Assembly: GCA_021399395.1 (NCBI GenBank) | Contig: JAAFKJ010000011.1 | Coordinates: 1-10,412 of the forward strand | DNA: 10,412 nucleotides | Source: Candidatus Heimdallarchaeota archaeon | Lineage (GTDB): Archaea > Asgardarchaeota > Heimdallarchaeia > Heimdallarchaeales > Heimdallarchaeaceae | Reading direction: 5' to 3' | Shown: positions 2,283 to 10,412 of the stretch, in pieces | Numbering within the stretch: the first letter of the stretch is position 1 | How the letters are laid out: the number at the start of each line of letters is the position of its first letter | Made by a program: the position numbers and the translations under genes | Notes under the pieces: model-generated | Database searches by the model: none | Seen by the model: only the letters and a program-made list of their open reading frames with translations | What the model was told of the DNA's origin: nothing

Positions 2283-2320
2283 CTTTCTTATTTTTTCCTT
2301 TATTTTTCTTTTTACTCTTT
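2283..2320 (+). terminator. Archaeal-type oligo-T terminator after the opp operon
   Basis: Pyrimidine tract tctttcttattttttcctttatttttctttttactcttt immediately after TAA 2281, with no hairpin. Confidence 0.6.
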
Positions 2321-2387
2321 AAACTAAAACAAGATTTATTTAGTCTAATTCAGAGTGTACGATGTTATTTAACTTGTACGTACTACT

Positions 2388-2394
2388 GAGAGGT
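2388..2394 (+). promoter_or_regulatory. Shine-Dalgarno (GAGAGGT) for the 2403 ORF
   Basis: GAGAGGT ends 8 nt before ATG 2403. A TATA-like TTTATTTA lies at 2335-2342. Confidence 0.6.
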
Positions 2395-2402
2395 AATAAT
2401 CC

Positions 2403-3155
2403 ATGAGTAGAGTGAATCTTGAATCAGCTCAGAATAATATCGAGCGATTATCAAATAATCTGAATGAATTGCAACAAATGCTCTCCAGCAAGAATGATGA
2501 GTTGAACGCAAAAATCAGAGAATTTAATGATGTACTCTCTTCTTTCTTTAGAGAAGCAGATGAAAAGAATCAGCTCTTTAACAAAGAGGAAGAAAGAAAG
2601 AGAACAAATAGTGAAGAATTGGAGCAACTTAATGCTAAGTTCCAAGAATTGAATTCTAGAAAAGATATCCTGCAATCAGAAATCGCCAGTAAACAACAAG
2701 ATATTGGACAGTTATCGGCTTTAGTTCTTGAAAGAGAGAAATTAAGTACAGAAGCTAGCCTTCAAGTTGATTCTCTCAACGAAAGAATTGCTAATTTTAA
2801 CAGAAAAATCGAAGAGATGGAAGTTCTTACAGATGCGCTAATTGAAGAAACTAAGGAGAAAACAAGAACTTTGGAAATAAAGAACGCCGAATTATCAGAA
2901 CAATATAATAGAATAGTATCACGTTCCAAGTCCTTACAATATCTAATCAAAAAGGATATTGTAACACTTCCTGAAATTCAAGTGATTCGCAGCTTGAATA
3001 CACCTGGTATTGACACATTGGATAATCTTCGAAAAACATCGGGGGTTTCAGAGGATATTATTAGAAAAATACTACAAGATCTAGCCCGACTAGAAGTTGT
3101 TGCTTTTGATCCATCAACTGGAAAAATCCAGATTTTATCAAGGATTGATATTTAG
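2403..3155 (+). CDS. Hypothetical protein: long N-terminal coiled coil plus C-terminal winged-helix (TrmB/MarR-like) domain
   Basis: 250 aa. Residues ~1-175 are E/K/Q/N/L-rich, Pro-free and show heptad periodicity. The C-terminus PEIQVIRSLNTPGIDTLDNLRKTSGVSEDIIRKILQDLARLEVVAFDPSTGKIQI fits a helix-helix-turn-helix plus beta-wing pattern. Confidence 0.75.
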   Translation: MSRVNLESAQNNIERLSNNLNELQQMLSSKNDELNAKIREFNDVLSSFFREADEKNQLFNKEEERKRTNSEELEQLNAKFQELNSRKDILQSEIASKQQDIGQLSALVLEREKLSTEASLQVDSLNERIANFNRKIEEMEVLTDALIEETKEKTRTLEIKNAELSEQYNRIVSRSKSLQYLIKKDIVTLPEIQVIRSLNTPGIDTLDNLRKTSGVSEDIIRKILQDLARLEVVAFDPSTGKIQILSRIDI

Positions 3156-3166
3156 GAGGAATAAAG

Positions 3167-3919
3167 ATGACAATAGAAAAACTCAATGAAATTTTAGGTG
3201 ATTTAAAGCGAGGAATAGAAGAATTTTCATCACGCTCTTCTTCAACTATTTCTAGCTCGAAAATAACTCTTGAATCAACAGAAGCTGATGTTAGAGCCAT
3301 TCCTGAATATCTTTTAACTCTTCAGAATTCAATGAATGAAATCCAGAAGAACAATAAAGAATTAGAAGAGAAAATAATGAATATAAAACAAGCAATTGAT
3401 ACTGTTACAACTGAGATTGAAATTAATGAGAGCAACAAAGGTGATCTTATAGAGACCGAAGGTAGGAAAAGGACCTATAAAGAAGATTTGGAAAGGCAAA
3501 TAGCTGAGTCTCAACAAAAGAAAGCTCAACTTGATTTAGAATTCAATGATGCTGGTGGTGATGCCACTAGAAAAGAACAAGAATATAATCAATTACAAAT
3601 AAGCACAGGAGAAGAGATTGAGCGTTTAAACCAACAAATAGGTGAAGCAACAACAAGGGTTCAACAAGCAGAATCAGAGAACAAGTTGATTGTGTACCTC
3701 ATGGATGCTGGTTTGATGGATGTTCCAGAAGCTGAAGTGGTAGCGATAGTTGCGGCATATCCAAATGGTTTGAAAATTGATGAAATCAAGCAAAAAGTCA
3801 ACATGCCACCTGTAAGGGTACAACCAACAGTAAATAATCTTCTAGAAACAGTCTTAGAATATGATGCACTATCTGATTCCTACAAGATTATAGATACAAT
3901 CAAAAAAGAGCTTTTGTAA
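3167..3919 (+). CDS. Hypothetical protein: long N-terminal coiled coil plus C-terminal winged-helix-like domain; probable distant paralogue of 2403-3155
   Basis: 250 aa, 11-nt gap from the upstream gene, SD GGAGGA at 3155-3160. Coiled-coil composition to ~aa 172, then PEAEVVAIVAAYPNGLKIDEIKQKVNMPPVRVQPTVNNLLETVLEYDALSDSYKI. Confidence 0.72.
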   Translation: MTIEKLNEILGDLKRGIEEFSSRSSSTISSSKITLESTEADVRAIPEYLLTLQNSMNEIQKNNKELEEKIMNIKQAIDTVTTEIEINESNKGDLIETEGRKRTYKEDLERQIAESQQKKAQLDLEFNDAGGDATRKEQEYNQLQISTGEEIERLNQQIGEATTRVQQAESENKLIVYLMDAGLMDVPEAEVVAIVAAYPNGLKIDEIKQKVNMPPVRVQPTVNNLLETVLEYDALSDSYKIIDTIKKELL

Positions 3920-3920
3920 G

Positions 3921-3941
3921 CTTTTTTTCTCCTATTTCTTC
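3921..3941 (+). terminator. Oligo-T terminator after the coiled-coil pair
   Basis: ctttttttctcctatttcttc directly follows TAA 3919, with further T-runs at 3965-3978. Confidence 0.55.
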
Positions 3942-5474: not shown

Positions 5475-5502
5475 GATAGGAATATCCTATCACTCTTTTT
5501 TC
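5475..5502. terminator. Hairpin plus T-run between convergent genes; candidate bidirectional terminator
   Basis: Perfect 7-bp stem GATAGGA-ata-TCCTATC (5475-5491), followed on + by actctttttt and on - by tttct. It overlaps the TGA of the minus-strand gene. Confidence 0.55.
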
Positions 5503-8465
5503 TCTTCTTGTTTTATTATCATCCCTTCCCTATTTTGTGCATCTATTCGCACAATTAGGGGGTGCTTTAATCTGACATGGTTCACATATTGGAGTTCTCT
5601 TTCTGGTTTTTTAGCTTGCAACCATTCCCAATCTATGAAGTGATTTTCCTTTGTATGTTTGATGTGGAAGTAACCTATGTTTGCTGTTACTATATTATGA
5701 AAGAAATGAGTTCCTTGAGAGAAATCAACCATGAAATCTTGTAAAGATGTTTCGATTATTGCCTTTGCACCACTAATATTACTCCATTTAACAGGAATGC
5801 CTAAGAATCTATCAGCTGTTCCCCATCGACCAAATCCGATTAAGAGATATGATCTACCTTCTTTAAGTAACAAAGCATTCAACTCATCTATTTCCTCAAC
5901 CATTTCTAGTGTTTTGGTTTTATCAAACATTTCTGGTTTGACATAGATTACGTCTTGGATATCTTTTCGGAGTAAATTGCCTGAAACGTGGTTTGAGTAT
6001 GCAAGGACCTGACTTACATCTACTGAATCATAATCTTCCATCAGTAGTATTTCTTGTTGCAAGAATGGTCGTATCTGAAGTATAGAGAAAACATTTTTCT
6101 CATCAGGTGAGTTCTTAAAAGTTCCAGCGAATTCTATTTCAATCGAAGACCCGAGTGCTCTTTCACCTATTTGCAGAATCCTTGTCAATAATTCAGATAG
6201 AGGAAAGATAGAGTATTTGAGTTGCTGACCAAATGTAATTACAGGAGAACCTTCACCAAAAAATCCATCTCTTAGTGCTTCGGATTCAAAATTATAGGAA
6301 TCAGCTATTTTGGTTAATGTTCCATCTTTAATTGCATCAGACAAATTTAACCGTTTCATATAAGGATCATCATTCAAAATATCAAACTCTTTCATTGTTA
6401 AATCAATAGCATAATAGTTCTTCTGACTTTGTTCAAGAAGAATATCTGGAGTTGAGAAATAATTGATTTTAGGGTACTTAGGGCAAAATCGAACTGCTGA
6501 TTCACCTTCTACTATAGTTTTTCCAAGTCCTAGAGCTAAATGAGCGATTCGATCTTCTGGTTTCATGTAATCGCCAAAAGGATAATAGTTGTAAGAAGAA
6601 GCTGTTCCAGAGAAGTCTGGATAAAATCTATCATTGTGTTCATGCCCTACTACTTCCTGGATTACGACAGCCATTTTAGATTCTTCTACTGTCTGCTGAA
6701 TAGTCTCAGCATAGGATTTAGCAAGTTTCAAGAATTGAGATGCATATACCAATTTTATTGCAGTACAAAGCTGTTTTGTTCTCTCTTCATCACCATCTTG
6801 ATTATTTGGAATCATATATGTATCAAAAATACCAGCAAATGGTTGATATGCTGAATCTTCAAGAAGGCTTGATGATCTAATTGCCAAGGGACCAGTAAGA
6901 TCTTTTAATAGAAAGCGAAGATCTTTCACTATGCTTTTAGAGAGTTTTGCCTTTACAAACTTCTTTTTGATTTCTTCATCACTTGTCTCGGATAAGGCAA
7001 ATTCGTAAAGATTATTTTCTTCCATAAACTTATCATATTCATCGGTTCCAATTACAATCGTTTTGGGAATTTCTACTGATATGTCTTCAAATTCAGATTC
7101 AATCAGAAATGAATTCAACAAGAACATAAGAAAAGCAATTCCTCTACCTTTTCCACCTAAAGATCCAGGACGGAGTCGTAAGAACAAAATCTGATGGTGA
7201 TAGTTTTCATAAGAAAAATCGTTAATTACACCTTTTGTTTTTTCGTTGACAAGTTTATTAATAGTTTTTAGGAGAAAGTCTTGAAGTTCTTCTTTTGTAA
7301 ATTCAGACACTTTTCTGGGTTTAAGCGTTTCAGCAATCTCAAACTCTCCTCTAGCATGTAACCAATTTGAAAAATGGTCATTCTTACCATGAAATACAAG
7401 ACATTCTAAAGGAACCTCAGAGATTTTGCTGAAAAATGTTATAACGTCATTGGCATTGCCAAATTCAACGCCATCTTGATTTTTGAAAACAAAATCACCA
7501 AATCCCACATATTGAAGAAGCCAATTCCTTAAATCCCACATCATTCCATGAGAACGTTTGTGGATGTAAAAACACCCCATCTCTTCTGCTTCCTCTCTAT
7601 AGAATTCTTTACTGGATTGAAGTACAATTGGAAGATTTGTATTTTCTTCTTTTATTCTCTTAGCAAAAAGAAATCCTGCGTTCTTAGTTAGTTTACCATC
7701 TACTGGGAATTCTATATCAGAGATTACGCCCATCAGATAATCTTTGTATTTTTCATAATAAGCAAGAGCTTCTTCATAGGTTTCAGCTAAAAGAATTTTG
7801 GGTCTAACTCTCATCTTAAGTAAATCTTGGAAATCGTTTGTACCTTCAGTTATTAATCGATGAGTTTGCCGCATTATCTCACCATAAAGCTCTGGGAGGA
7901 GGAGTGAATAGAAACGAATAGAATCGTCTACAAAAATAAAAACTCTAACATTCCCCTTCTGGGTATCATAATCAGCATTAAATTTATCTTCAAGATGTTT
8001 TATTATGGCAACAAATATTTTAGAATCACCATTCCAAACAAAGACACGGTCAATTCCCTTTCTTTTTTCAAATTCAGGAAGGTATTTTATTTCAACAACA
8101 CTGTTCAGAAGCAATATTACTGGAATATCTTGAATTGATTTTACATTCACTCCAAAAGAAAACGCATCCATATCCCCTAGCCTTCTCATGGTTATTACCA
8201 AATCAAACTTCTTTTCTCCAAGCATTTCAAGAGCTTCATTTGCAGAAGAAACACGGGTAATTCTCGGTAAAGTTCTGAGATTGAGGTTCTGGAATTCTTC
8301 ATAGATTTGATCAGATAGACGCCCATCTTCTTCGAGCATGAAACTATCATAGATACTTGATACAAGAAGAACATTCCTCATCCGGATATCCATTAATTCA
8401 TGAAATATTTTGTACTTTGGCTTATATTCTAGAAAGAAACTCTCTGCATCTTGATGTGAAGACAA
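5490..8465 (-). CDS. Receiver-domain-containing PEP-synthase/PPDK-like ATP-grasp protein ('PEP/pyruvate-binding domain' family), function unknown
   Basis: 991 aa, TTG start with a strong SD AGGAGGT 6 nt upstream. Degenerate REC (NVLLVSS..FDLVITM); second REC (FVD180D181, GVISD250, LQSS, YIHK303); PPDK_N-type motifs GSLGGKG (434-440), IRSSSLLEDS..PFAG (R530), MAVVIQEVVG, LGLGKTIVEG, IEIEFA, LQIRP (796-800); C-terminal GFGRWG and SQGTH920FFHN. Confidence 0.85.
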   Translation of the reverse strand: MSSHQDAESFFLEYKPKYKIFHELMDIRMRNVLLVSSIYDSFMLEEDGRLSDQIYEEFQNLNLRTLPRITRVSSANEALEMLGEKKFDLVITMRRLGDMDAFSFGVNVKSIQDIPVILLLNSVVEIKYLPEFEKRKGIDRVFVWNGDSKIFVAIIKHLEDKFNADYDTQKGNVRVFIFVDDSIRFYSLLLPELYGEIMRQTHRLITEGTNDFQDLLKMRVRPKILLAETYEEALAYYEKYKDYLMGVISDIEFPVDGKLTKNAGFLFAKRIKEENTNLPIVLQSSKEFYREEAEEMGCFYIHKRSHGMMWDLRNWLLQYVGFGDFVFKNQDGVEFGNANDVITFFSKISEVPLECLVFHGKNDHFSNWLHARGEFEIAETLKPRKVSEFTKEELQDFLLKTINKLVNEKTKGVINDFSYENYHHQILFLRLRPGSLGGKGRGIAFLMFLLNSFLIESEFEDISVEIPKTIVIGTDEYDKFMEENNLYEFALSETSDEEIKKKFVKAKLSKSIVKDLRFLLKDLTGPLAIRSSSLLEDSAYQPFAGIFDTYMIPNNQDGDEERTKQLCTAIKLVYASQFLKLAKSYAETIQQTVEESKMAVVIQEVVGHEHNDRFYPDFSGTASSYNYYPFGDYMKPEDRIAHLALGLGKTIVEGESAVRFCPKYPKINYFSTPDILLEQSQKNYYAIDLTMKEFDILNDDPYMKRLNLSDAIKDGTLTKIADSYNFESEALRDGFFGEGSPVITFGQQLKYSIFPLSELLTRILQIGERALGSSIEIEFAGTFKNSPDEKNVFSILQIRPFLQQEILLMEDYDSVDVSQVLAYSNHVSGNLLRKDIQDVIYVKPEMFDKTKTLEMVEEIDELNALLLKEGRSYLLIGFGRWGTADRFLGIPVKWSNISGAKAIIETSLQDFMVDFSQGTHFFHNIVTANIGYFHIKHTKENHFIDWEWLQAKKPERELQYVNHVRLKHPLIVRIDAQNREGMIIKQEEKKE

Positions 8466-10152: not shown

Positions 10153-10412
10153 ATGGAACCGGAAAATAGAGGAAATGATACTCTAATTCATGAAGATGAA
10201 TTCTTAGATTCAGGTACTATTGTCCCATTATCTCAGAGGGATGCTTTGATAGTTGAGATGTATGAAGATGGTTTATCTACATATGATATAGCTATCCAAT
10301 TAGAACTAAACCGACACACGATATCAAGAGTTCTTAAAGAAAACAGAATAGAAACAAGAACTATAGCTGATTACCATAAATTCAAACATGAAGATATTGA
10401 ATTATTGTTTAA
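10153..10412 (+). CDS. Helix-turn-helix protein, 3'-truncated by the window edge (not in the ORF track)
   Basis: ATG 10153 follows an in-frame TAG at 10147-10149 and stays open to the end: MEPENRGNDTLIHEDEFLDSGTIVPLSQRDALIVEMYEDGLSTYDIAIQLELNRHTISRVLKENRIETRTIADYHKFKHEDIELLF. GLSTYDIAIQLELNRHTISRVL is a clear HTH pattern. Confidence 0.75.
   Translation, partial: MEPENRGNDTLIHEDEFLDSGTIVPLSQRDALIVEMYEDGLSTYDIAIQLELNRHTISRVLKENRIETRTIADYHKFKHEDIELLF

Follow-up and report, generated by a model that had tools for sequence, protein, structure and literature searches.

The two adjacent genes at 2403..3155 (gene A) and 3167..3919 (gene B), both on the plus strand of the window (the whole 10,412-nucleotide stretch of DNA that was analyzed), are best read as a new, uncharacterized, Asgard-wide family without a described function. 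Each product consists of a single long helix followed by a C-terminal winged helix (wH), and the two are paralogues that strictly co-occur in a fixed order, with constrained lengths and matching heptad phase in their coils. Our leading explanation, which we offer tentatively and with somewhat less than even confidence, is that A and B join obligately into a rod whose wH heads are paired and which acts as a tether or spacer.

Locus, gene order, and spread

Both genes begin with ATG and encode 250 aa, gene A being the A-type and gene B the B-type paralogue. The stop codon of A (TAG, 3153-3155) is separated from the ATG of B at 3167 by an 11 nt spacer, and the ribosome-binding site of B (GGAGG, 3155..3159, plus strand) overlaps that stop codon. 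A ribosome-binding motif for A (GAGG, 2390..2393, plus strand) lies 9 nt before its start and is invariant in 17/17 aligned upstream regions. Approximately 62-75 nt 5' of the A ATG is a BRE/TATA-like, promoter-like box, AACAAGATTTATTT (2328..2341, plus strand), which is the best-conserved part of the aligned upstream regions (n=17, same genus) and probably acts as the promoter. Oligo-T tracts are known termination signals in archaea, and we therefore read the T-rich tract at 2283..2318 (plus strand), found 3' of the stop of an oppF-like gene (2281), as a likely archaeal terminator that would separate the pair from the upstream opp genes. Another T-rich tract (3920..3941, plus strand) directly follows the B stop and likely terminates the two-gene operon. 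The preliminary description of this DNA had reported two 250 aa ORFs with an 11 nt gap, a Shine-Dalgarno sequence over the first stop, and flanking T-tracts, all of which were confirmed, and its proposal of a stand-alone two-gene operon is upheld by the pair's own conserved promoter-like box and the T-tracts on both sides.

Outside the window, the immediate upstream neighbor of the B-type gene is a same-strand A-type gene in all 55 evaluable loci, which come from many Asgard families; four further loci cut by contig ends were left out of this count. Intergenic gaps are no longer than 29 nt in 24/24 full pairs, with stop and start overlapping in 13 of those, and such tight spacing fits translational coupling and equal dosage. 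B-type matches (E <= 1e-8) were retrieved from 237 of 400 genomes of the phylum, examples by family being 28/30 in f1, 11/12 in f2, 20/22 in f5, 12/12 in f6, and 110/135 in f14. The pair was found in f1, f2, f4-f8, f14, f17, f18, and f25, and was not found in the genomes examined from f11, f12, f13, and f23. The operon is kept in most of the sampled Heimdallarchaeia and Lokiarchaeia genomes, and homologues carry source names from Heimdallarchaeaceae, Kariarchaeaceae, Hodarchaeales, Promethearchaeota/Lokiarchaeota, and Baldrarchaeia, the last being assigned by source name. No neighboring gene is conserved beyond family level, gene context differs between families, and it is only in Heimdallarchaeaceae that the pair is flanked by opp genes and gdhA. 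The window's own genome has one copy of the pair, which is strongly constrained, and this copy number, together with the family-dependent neighbors, suggests a global rather than a local role.

Among matches to A, 42/47 are 250 aa long, and of the 73 B homologues, 42 have 251 aa, 23 have 250 aa, and the remaining 8 span 237-253 aa. Across Asgard pairs, A-type proteins range from 239-266 aa and B-type proteins from 239-258 aa, with a median |lenA-lenB| of 6 aa (34 pairs from many families, using first-start ORF calls). Family-type matches in a library of 1.84 billion proteins are 237-254 aa long, and in a separate search the 120 matches listed of 569 are 237-253 aa long. The exact length matching that had first drawn attention to the pair stands as a tight constraint, but 250/250 equality is seen only in close relatives. 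The expectation that homologues would occur as adjacent pairs held at all 55 loci, and their lengths are tightly constrained. The preliminary description had recognized no named family for the pair, and none fits it: no curated family or solved structure among those searched covers it, and full-text searches of the literature on Asgard archaea gave no paper on such a pair; asCOG-type supplementary lists may include the family.

Fold, paralogy, and coil register

The AF2 model of A (pLDDT 90.7) places residues 4-183 (2412..2951, plus strand) in a single long helix, with pLDDT mostly >90, followed by an H-H-H-E-E winged helix in residues 184-250 (2952..3152, plus strand) with elements H190-198, H206-213, H217-229, E233-235, and E241-244. 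The model of B (pLDDT 87.3) similarly has a single long helix across residues 3-180 (3173..3706, plus strand), containing the invariant P46, and then an H-H-H-E-E-H arrangement in residues 181-250 (3707..3916, plus strand), comprising H186-196, H204-210, H215-225, E230-233, E238-241, and a short C-terminal helix at 243-249. Heptad analysis agrees with both long helices, and fold searches agree with both wH domains. The three-helix bundle followed by a beta-hairpin wing that characterizes a wH is present in both AF2 models. The A domain aligned with the wH of SelB (1lva_A) at Z 8.5 and rmsd 2.1 over 60 residues, the B domain matched MarR 2fa5_A (E 3.5e-3) and TrmBL2 5bpd, and the fold matches of the pair as a whole include MarR, IclR, Fur/Nur, CAP, SelB wH, and TrmBL2. 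The previously described architecture of a long coil and then a C-terminal wH in both proteins is thus supported by AF2 and by the matches to wH regulators, and the fold comparison found both C-terminal domains to be wH of the MarR/TrmB kind, not unrelated folds.

Neither window protein has a Pfam match to MarR (PF01047) or TrmB (PF01978), and neither reaches any Pfam HTH cut-off, the best for B being HTH_69 with 13.9 bits versus 27. Among relatives at E <= 0.01, Pfam MarR was matched by 4/20 B-type sequences (best E 9.5e-5), and A-type sequences matched TrmB in 3/17 and MarR in 2/17. Because the window proteins score below the cut-offs, yet their relatives retrieve MarR and TrmB, the A and B wH domains are, judged from sequence, a divergent branch of the MarR/TrmB superfamily and not members by Pfam's rule.

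The coils of A and B are barely alignable (BLASTP E 0.001, coil segments only), as had been noticed at the outset. An hhalign comparison of the two family alignments nevertheless matched A 154-248 to B 151-245 (E 3.8e-5, probability 70.7%) with an offset of 3 residues, the same as in the preliminary description. In distant lineages each protein matches both the A and the B profiles, and a tree of 10 pairs splits the A and B clades with 99/99 support. By the hhalign match and this tree, A and B are ancient paralogues, in agreement with the old duplication that had been proposed. The junction between coil and head carries the motif K176-x3-Y180-L181-x8-P190-E191-x2-V194 in A and K173-x3-Y177-L178-x8-P187-E188-x2-V191 in B, most residues of which show little or no variation across the family alignments. 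This motif had been described as a switch from coil to globular domain; it is indeed present and conserved, but it is part of a MarR-like wH module, which also forms tandem repeats in other proteins. The repeat proteins P0225 and P0198 score 51.7 and 32.7 bits, respectively, versus a MarR/TrmB-type Pfam cut-off of 24.6.

Within Heimdallarchaeaceae, conservation peaks at the junction of B (mean identity 94% over residues 171-190) and at the very conserved N-terminal tip of A. The outward-facing heptad positions of A are conserved to the same degree as its core, which hints at further partners or a higher-order bundle beyond a simple dimer. The A heptads are continuous along the helix, with stutter-like shifts at two places, around residues 34-38 and 150-154, and the window B heptads are in phase with them at the offset A(i)=B(i-3). 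Anchored at the junction, the A and B heptad phases coincide over the whole coil in 7/10 lineage pairs; the remaining 3/10 show a constant phase shift, which fits the 1-2-residue junction indels of the alignments. Beta-branched residues predominate at a and Leu at d in the coil core, which coiled-coil rules associate with parallel coils of two strands. Signals for specific pairing between the chains were also scored. In the window pair, layers that are polar in both chains number 3/51 versus 4.1 expected (P 0.34), so that complementarity in the core is not significant. Over 34 pairs the number of coinciding polar layers slightly exceeds that in rolled controls (165 versus 146.9 +/- 8.6), a test biased by the register assignment. 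The g-e' charge score is higher for A:B (+1.9) than for A:A (-0.4) and B:B (-2.3) and so favors the heterodimer, but it falls within the shifted-control spread of -3.3 to +4.1. A polar/hydrophobic alternation between A and B seen by eye in mid-coil was discarded, being neither significant nor reproduced over the 34 pairs.

The net charge of the wH averages -1.1 in A (positive in 9/34 pairs) and -3.5 in B (positive in 2/34 pairs), and both whole proteins are acidic. Mostly net-acidic wH domains do not favor unspecific DNA binding and make DNA binding uncertain. Of the earlier reading as wHTH-like domains in a candidate DNA-binding system, the wH fold holds, but DNA binding is less certain given this acidity. 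According to their consensus, most B-type sequences retain a K and an R-T pair in helix 3.

Proposed rod and competing explanations

Made together from one small operon, A and B would form an obligate complex, in its likeliest form a two-stranded coiled coil with parallel chains in register and ~180 residues in each, which at 0.148 nm per residue would be ~27 nm long. The C-terminal end of this rod would carry the two MarR/TrmB-derived wH domains next to each other, and the very conserved A N-terminus would form the distal tip. The complex may serve as a non-enzymatic spacer or tether: its double-wH head would grasp either DNA, in the manner of a MarR dimer, or a specific partner, and the rod would present the head's cargo at a fixed distance to whatever binds its surface or tip. 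Rigid, fixed-length rods with paired heads are typical of tethers and rulers.

What the heads hold and how the chains pair are the points on which other explanations diverge. One possible, though doubtful, explanation is that the A-B rod has protein-binding heads, making it a scaffold or adaptor for some process of the cytoskeleton, the membrane, or proteostasis; wH domains bind proteins in ESCRT-II, cullins, and kleisin partners. The net acidity of both wH domains in most of the 34 pairs and of the whole proteins agrees with this, as do the conserved exposed coil face of A and, within Heimdallarchaeaceae, the concentration of conservation at the B junction and A tip instead of the recognition helices; in addition, PMC10936438 describes archaeal proteins linked to ESCRT that combine a coil with a C-terminal wH. 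The nearest sequence families, MarR and TrmB, however, bind DNA, most B-type sequences retain the third-helix R-T pair and K, and ESCRT, actin, and tubulin genes are not conserved neighbors. As for pairing, the two stutters are placed almost symmetrically in the 183-residue A coil, one ~35 residues after its N end and the other ~31 before its C end, so that an antiparallel arrangement fits equally well. We would nevertheless consider it unlikely that A:B dimers or homodimers pair in this way to give a bipolar rod with one wH per end, bridging DNAs or partners ~27 nm apart, as the domain order is alike in both paralogues and so is their heptad phase when counted from the junction. The junction helix is moreover the most conserved part of B, as expected if junctions and heads pack together, and parallel pairing predominates among long intermolecular coils of two chains that have globular domains at like ends.

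It also appears quite unlikely that A and B are separate homodimeric rods, that is, co-expressed paralogues with related but distinct tasks. Homodimers are in register by definition, the heterospecific core and charge signals are not significant, and A and B differ in surface conservation, all of which would suit such an arrangement. Against it stand the fixed order in 55/55 evaluable loci of very divergent lineages, with tight or overlapping stop and start codons, and the tendency of conserved gene pairs to encode interacting proteins. Homodimers would furthermore stack like-charged conserved core residues, for example K30, E62, K66, K87, K97, and R111 in A, and K91, E98, K101, K105, K119, and K136 in B. 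We regard it as very unlikely that the pair is a heterodimeric, specific regulator of transcription akin to MarR/TrmB, its coil sensing a signal such as temperature, as in the coiled-coil repressor TlpA. The MarR/TrmB-type wH would be in place, and the conserved upstream region could hold an operator, but no conserved target genes adjoin the pair (its context varies by family), conserved blocks upstream are limited to the promoter-like box and the ribosome-binding motif, and no conserved inverted repeat was seen by eye in the 17 upstream regions. The length and sequence of the coil are, moreover, conserved far beyond the needs of a sensor or dimerization helix.

Returning to the A-B tether, its most far-reaching form would be an undescribed, Asgard-wide core machine of the cell, in which a two-subunit, 27-nm rod grips chromosomal DNA with its double wH and uses the conserved A surface and N-terminal tip to couple it to a filament or membrane partner, such as Asgard actin or tubulin. 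There is, in our estimation, only a slim prospect of this. If true, A-B would be a prokaryotic counterpart, and perhaps in principle a forerunner, of the coiled-coil DNA-to-cytoskeleton linkers that eukaryotes have in Ndc80/Spc24-25 or Hop2-Mnd1. No known prokaryotes are more closely related to eukaryotes than Asgard archaea, and to our knowledge very little is known of how their chromosomes and cytoskeleton are organized; if A-B links DNA to another cell structure, it would offer a new entry point into Asgard cell biology. Lokiarchaeota/Promethearchaeota include cultured members, and since the proteins are small and soluble-looking and have homologues bearing these names, A-B function may be testable there.

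Comparison with known systems

The eukaryotic meiotic recombination cofactor Hop2-Mnd1 consists of paralogous chains of ~200-250 aa in a long parallel heterodimeric coiled coil, with one wH per chain juxtaposed at one end and binding DNA. A and B are likewise two paralogous chains of ~200-250 aa with a long coil and one wH each, and may pair in a like manner. In Hop2-Mnd1, however, the wH is N-terminal and the coil is in three segments, whereas A and B have a C-terminal wH and an unbroken ~180-residue helix. The TBPIP and Mnd1 Pfam signatures are absent from A and B at E <= 0.1, and no sequence relation was found. Spc24-Spc25, of the kinetochore Ndc80 complex, is formed of two short, paralogue-like chains with an N-terminal parallel coil and paired C-terminal heads at one end of a rod, an arrangement that A and B resemble in their N-terminal coils and C-terminal globular heads and may resemble in their pairing. 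The Spc24-Spc25 heads are RWD domains, whereas those of A and B are wH by AF2 and fold search. A likeness confined to the coil was obtained with SPC25 (9s4q, E 3e-7, PDB sequence search), and Pfam Spc24 appeared below its cut-off in one relative. That PDB search, made with the broad family alignment, retrieved 142 sequences at E <= 0.01, the best 60 of which are long coiled coils (myosin, crescentin, tropomyosin, SMC) with no wH protein among them.

The MarR/TrmB regulators, including the archaeal chromatin protein TrmBL2, share the wH fold of A and B, and the top Foldseek matches are MarR 2fa5_A, TrmBL2 5bpd, and Nur and IclR types. MarR proteins, in contrast, are ~150 aa long and dimerize through helices flanking the wH, where A and B have a 180-residue N-terminal coil; TrmB has an N-terminal wH, unlike the C-terminal, acidic wH domains of the paralogous pair. 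A link to ESCRT was rejected for lack of domain matches and of an ESCRT neighborhood: Pfam searches gave no match to Snf7, EAP30, or Vps25 in A or B, and ESCRT genes are absent among the neighbors of the pair in 10 larger loci. The pair thereby differs in domains and locus from the ESCRT-associated coil and wH proteins (CdvB with its C-terminal wH, ESCRT-II Vps22/25/36, and arCOG09748), and its architecture is not among the ESCRT-linked ones described in the passages of PMC10936438 consulted.

SMC and Rad50 proteins have a long heptad coil, as A and B do, but A and B lack their Walker A/B ATPase head and the hinge or zinc hook that antiparallel coils flank. No P-loop domain was matched in A or B by Pfam, and SMC/Rad50 matches fall in the coil region, far below cut-off. 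A defense-system or phage origin was also considered and set aside, with PADLOC and PHROGs returning only weak SMC-like coil matches (LmuB, JetC, SbcC). We would like to note that sources label the homologues either "hypothetical protein" or, wrongly, "chromosome segregation ATPase". The latter, an automatic JGI label carried by several homologues, was rejected, as TIGR02169 scores 24.6 bits versus a cut-off of 729 and the proteins are only 250 aa long; this SMC-type label is an artefact of the coil's composition, and the weak NCBIfam and PADLOC matches likewise stem from the long heptad coil.

The A-B gene pair and its distribution

The genes encoding A and B, at positions 2403-3155 (+) and 3167-3919 (+) of the window, each start with ATG and are exactly 250 codons long. 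The spacer between them is 11 nt, and a GGAGG upstream of the B ATG (3155-3159, +) overlaps the TAG stop of A (3153-3155, +). T-rich tracts are found downstream of the upstream oppF-like gene and downstream of the B stop. Two blocks are conserved among 17 aligned upstream regions of the same genus: a BRE/TATA-like box, AACAAGATTTATTT, some 65 nt 5' of A, and a GAGG that precedes the A ATG by 9 nt. From these signals, the two genes look like an operon that stands on its own, as the preliminary description had proposed. The window (GC about 35%) is the entire contig C191, 10,412 bp, of a 2.8 Mb source genome that is 82% complete.

A and B belong to an Asgard gene family that is ancient, widely distributed, strictly paired and fixed in size. 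Named homologues occur in Heimdallarchaeaceae (the complete Ca. Heimdallarchaeum endolithica and aukensis genomes among them) and in Kariarchaeaceae, Hodarchaeales, Baldrarchaeia and Promethearchaeota/Lokiarchaeota. A broad profile of the B-type paralogue group matched 237 of 400 phylum genomes at E <=1e-8, the weakest matches covering the coil only; by family label within the phylum, matches were found, for example, in 28/30 (f1), 11/12 (f2), 3/3 (f4), 20/22 (f5), 12/12 (f6), 110/135 (f14) and 13/19 (f17) genomes. The pair was not found in the five f11, f12, f13 and f23 genomes examined (92-100% complete), which yielded either nothing or coil-only matches in ORFs of 231-1126 aa. We examined 59 loci outside the window, 4 of them with no or insufficient upstream DNA, and an A-type gene lies directly upstream of the B-type gene on the same strand in 55 (A being cut by the contig end in 3), so that homologues do occur as adjoining pairs, a point on which a profile search had been suggested. 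The gap between the genes is at most 29 nt in all 24 full pairs of one locus set, with stop and start overlapping in 13 of these. Neighbouring genes vary beyond the family level. Two genomes carry two A-B pairs each (G023, loci L073 and L075; G163, loci L030 and L038), so that at least two duplications of the entire operon have occurred. Several B-type matches in other genomes contain one in-frame stop, TGA, TAG or TAA (for example in genome and contig G130:C13, G286:C635, G383:C48 and G384:C1), which in most cases is probably read-through beyond the gene end.

Protein length is tightly held across the family: 42/47 A homologues are 250 aa long, and 65/73 B homologues are 250 or 251 aa. When 1.84 billion cluster representatives were searched, those of the best 150 matches covering the full profile in a single stretch are 237-254 aa long, the remainder being giant coiled-coil proteins matched over the coil alone. 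A word-indexed profile search retrieved 569 proteins at E <=1e-5, and the 120 listed among them are 237-253 aa long. Across 34 pairs, with lengths taken from first-start ORF calls, A varies between 239 and 266 aa and B between 239 and 258 aa, and the two differ by a median of 6 aa. The exact equality of A and B noted in the preliminary description is therefore confined to close relatives.

Predicted architecture and relationship of A and B

AlphaFold2 models computed from the family alignments predict a long coil followed by a C-terminal MarR/TrmB-like winged helix (wH) in each protein. The model of A (mean pLDDT 90.7) has a helix at 4-183, then H190-198, H206-213, H217-229, E233-235 and E241-244; that of B (pLDDT 87.3) has a helix at 3-180, then H186-196, H204-210, H215-225, E230-233 and E238-241, ending in a short helix at 243-249. 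Foldseek searches of the PDB with the C-terminal parts retrieved only winged-helix regulators, including MarR 2fa5_A (E 3.5e-3), TrmBL2, Nur, IclR types and Z-alpha, with no match at E 1e-3 or better. These results agree with the coil and wH arrangement first read from the sequence. A second structure search, independent of Foldseek and run with A, matched the long coils of myosin, lamin and tropomyosin (Z 8-9) and, separately, the wH of SelB (1lva_A, Z 8.5, rmsd 2.1 over 60 residues) and CAP; the combined architecture was found in no chain.

In the family profiles of both proteins, the coil has a strong and continuous periodicity of 3.5 residues, with stutter-like shifts at two places, which in A lie near residues 34-38 and 150-154. 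The a positions are mostly beta-branched and the d positions mostly Leu, as is characteristic of two-stranded coils. At 180 residues, the coil would form a rod about 27 nm long. B also has an invariant P46 ('IPEY', residues 45-48, window 3299-3310) within its predicted unbroken helix, level with 'SFF' of A.

Neither A nor B reaches a curated Pfam or NCBIfam cut-off, their sole matches being coil noise. The automatic JGI label of homologues, 'chromosome segregation ATPase', is due to such matches under the cut-off and was rejected. The databases searched contained neither a curated family nor a solved structure of this architecture, and full-text literature searches turned up no paper describing the pair, which accords with the earlier failure to recognise a named family. 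Among family members, Pfam MarR was matched by 4/20 B-type and 2/17 A-type proteins and TrmB by 3/17 A-type proteins. Two further proteins, P0225 (737 aa) and P0198 (230 aa), are built from B-type wH modules repeated in tandem and joined by short linkers only (Pfam MarR, 8.3e-14 and 7e-8), and their repeats carry the same lead-in, GY[IL]...PE[FV]E[IL]L. The K-x3-Y-L-x8-P-E-x2-V motif described at the coil-to-wH junction is real, but it is not a special switch from coil to head.

By BLASTP, A and B share weak similarity over the coil alone (E 0.001). Profile-profile comparison aligned A 154-248 with B 151-245 (E 3.8e-5, probability 70.7%), reproducing exactly the 3-residue offset of the motif between the two proteins. 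In distant lineages each protein matches both profiles, one A-type ORF, for example, scoring 3e-13 against A1 (built around A) and 9.5e-15 against A2 (built around B). A maximum-likelihood tree calculated for 10 A-B pairs, drawn from 10 lineages, places all A apart from all B with support 99/99, and the duplication therefore predates the split of these lineages. The original observation is thus borne out; the old duplication previously proposed is upheld by the tree and the profile comparison, and the evolutionary side of that interpretation is much widened.

Possible pairing, orientation and ligand of the heads

We consider it possible, though somewhat short of an even chance, that A and B form an obligate parallel rod whose two wH domains make up a double head, and which would act as a tether or spacer for DNA or another partner. 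Hop2-Mnd1 is a heterodimeric coiled-coil rod with paired wH heads, and the A-B rod as read here would have the reverse polarity. What speaks for a heteromer is the genomic coupling of the two genes, their strict co-retention, and the match of the two chains in geometry and heptad phase; gene pairs that are conserved tend to code for proteins that interact. With both chains anchored at the junction, A and B share their heptad phase over the full coil in 7/10 lineage pairs; the other three show a constant phase shift, consistent with 1-2-residue junction indels in the alignments. By eye, polar and hydrophobic core residues alternate between the chains at the coil centre of the window pair (A K87/B I84, A I94/B K91, A K97/B L94, A I101/B E98 and others). 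Of all 51 core layers in the family profiles, 3 have polar residues in both chains versus 4.1 expected (P 0.34), the in-register shift ranking 2nd of 13. Polar layers of A and B fall together a little more often in the 34 pairs than in rolled controls (165 vs 146.9 +/- 8.6), a comparison biased by register assignment. The g-e' charge scores (A:B +1.9, A:A -0.4, B:B -2.3) fall inside the spread of shifted controls. As neither core layers nor charges gave a significant signal for A:B pairing, A and B may, less probably, form separate homodimers. An antiparallel, bipolar rod with a wH head at each end would also fit the near-symmetric placement of the two stutters.

The heads of the proposed parallel rod may bind DNA or protein. 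Net charge argues against DNA and for protein: the A wH averages -1.1 (positive in 9/34 pairs) and the B wH -3.5 (positive in 2/34), in pairs whose coils are acidic too. DNA binding is favoured, on the other hand, by the descent of the wH from MarR/TrmB, by the R/K in helix 3 that most B-type sequences retain, and by a basic residue after the invariant glycine of the A wing (G240-K241) in nearly all 24 aligned homologues. As a further and less likely alternative, the pair may be a specific regulator. The best conserved stretches in Heimdallarchaeaceae are the junction of B (171-190) and A 1-10 (MSRVNLESAQ, window 2403-2432), each with 94% mean identity, the latter above most of the coil. In the same group, A is no less conserved at its outward b, c and f positions than in its core (0.70-0.77 vs 0.73-0.79), and B has the usual core bias (outward 0.52-0.57 vs core 0.73). 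The surface conservation of A, together with its conserved first ten residues, suggests a partner bound along A or at its tip.

Genes near the pair

In Ca. Heimdallarchaeum endolithica, a gene whose 220-aa product matches GPP34 / Golgi phosphoprotein 3 (PF05719, E 2.5e-19; locus L034:11453-12115, -) is found two genes downstream of the pair. In two genera of family f2, the gene transcribed divergently from A encodes a protein (214 or 219 aa) that is hydrophobic in its N-terminal part and has no Pfam match (L037:5221-5865, -, and L041:11354-12013, +; 31% identity to each other, E 8e-32); it may be a lineage-specific partner or mere synteny.

Around the pair, the window also encodes oppD-like and oppF-like ABC ATPases as well as gdhA, a protein with receiver and PPDK_N domains, an MFS transporter and a small HTH protein. 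The OppF-like ORF (1049-2281, +) extends about 100 aa N-terminally of ABC_tran, which begins at residue 110; its GTG start abuts the oppD-like stop, so the real start may lie further in. The small HTH protein (HTH_23 / GerE-like; 10153-10410, +, open at the contig end) matches the CRISPR repeat-binding protein Cbp1 weakly (NF040595, E 1.7e-4), far under the cut-off. The gene at 5490-8465 (-) encodes a 991-aa protein in which a response-regulator receiver (62-119) is fused to a PPDK_N / PEP-utilising ATP-grasp domain (435-802), and same-size counterparts (993 and 991 aa) adjoin gdhA in two other genomes.
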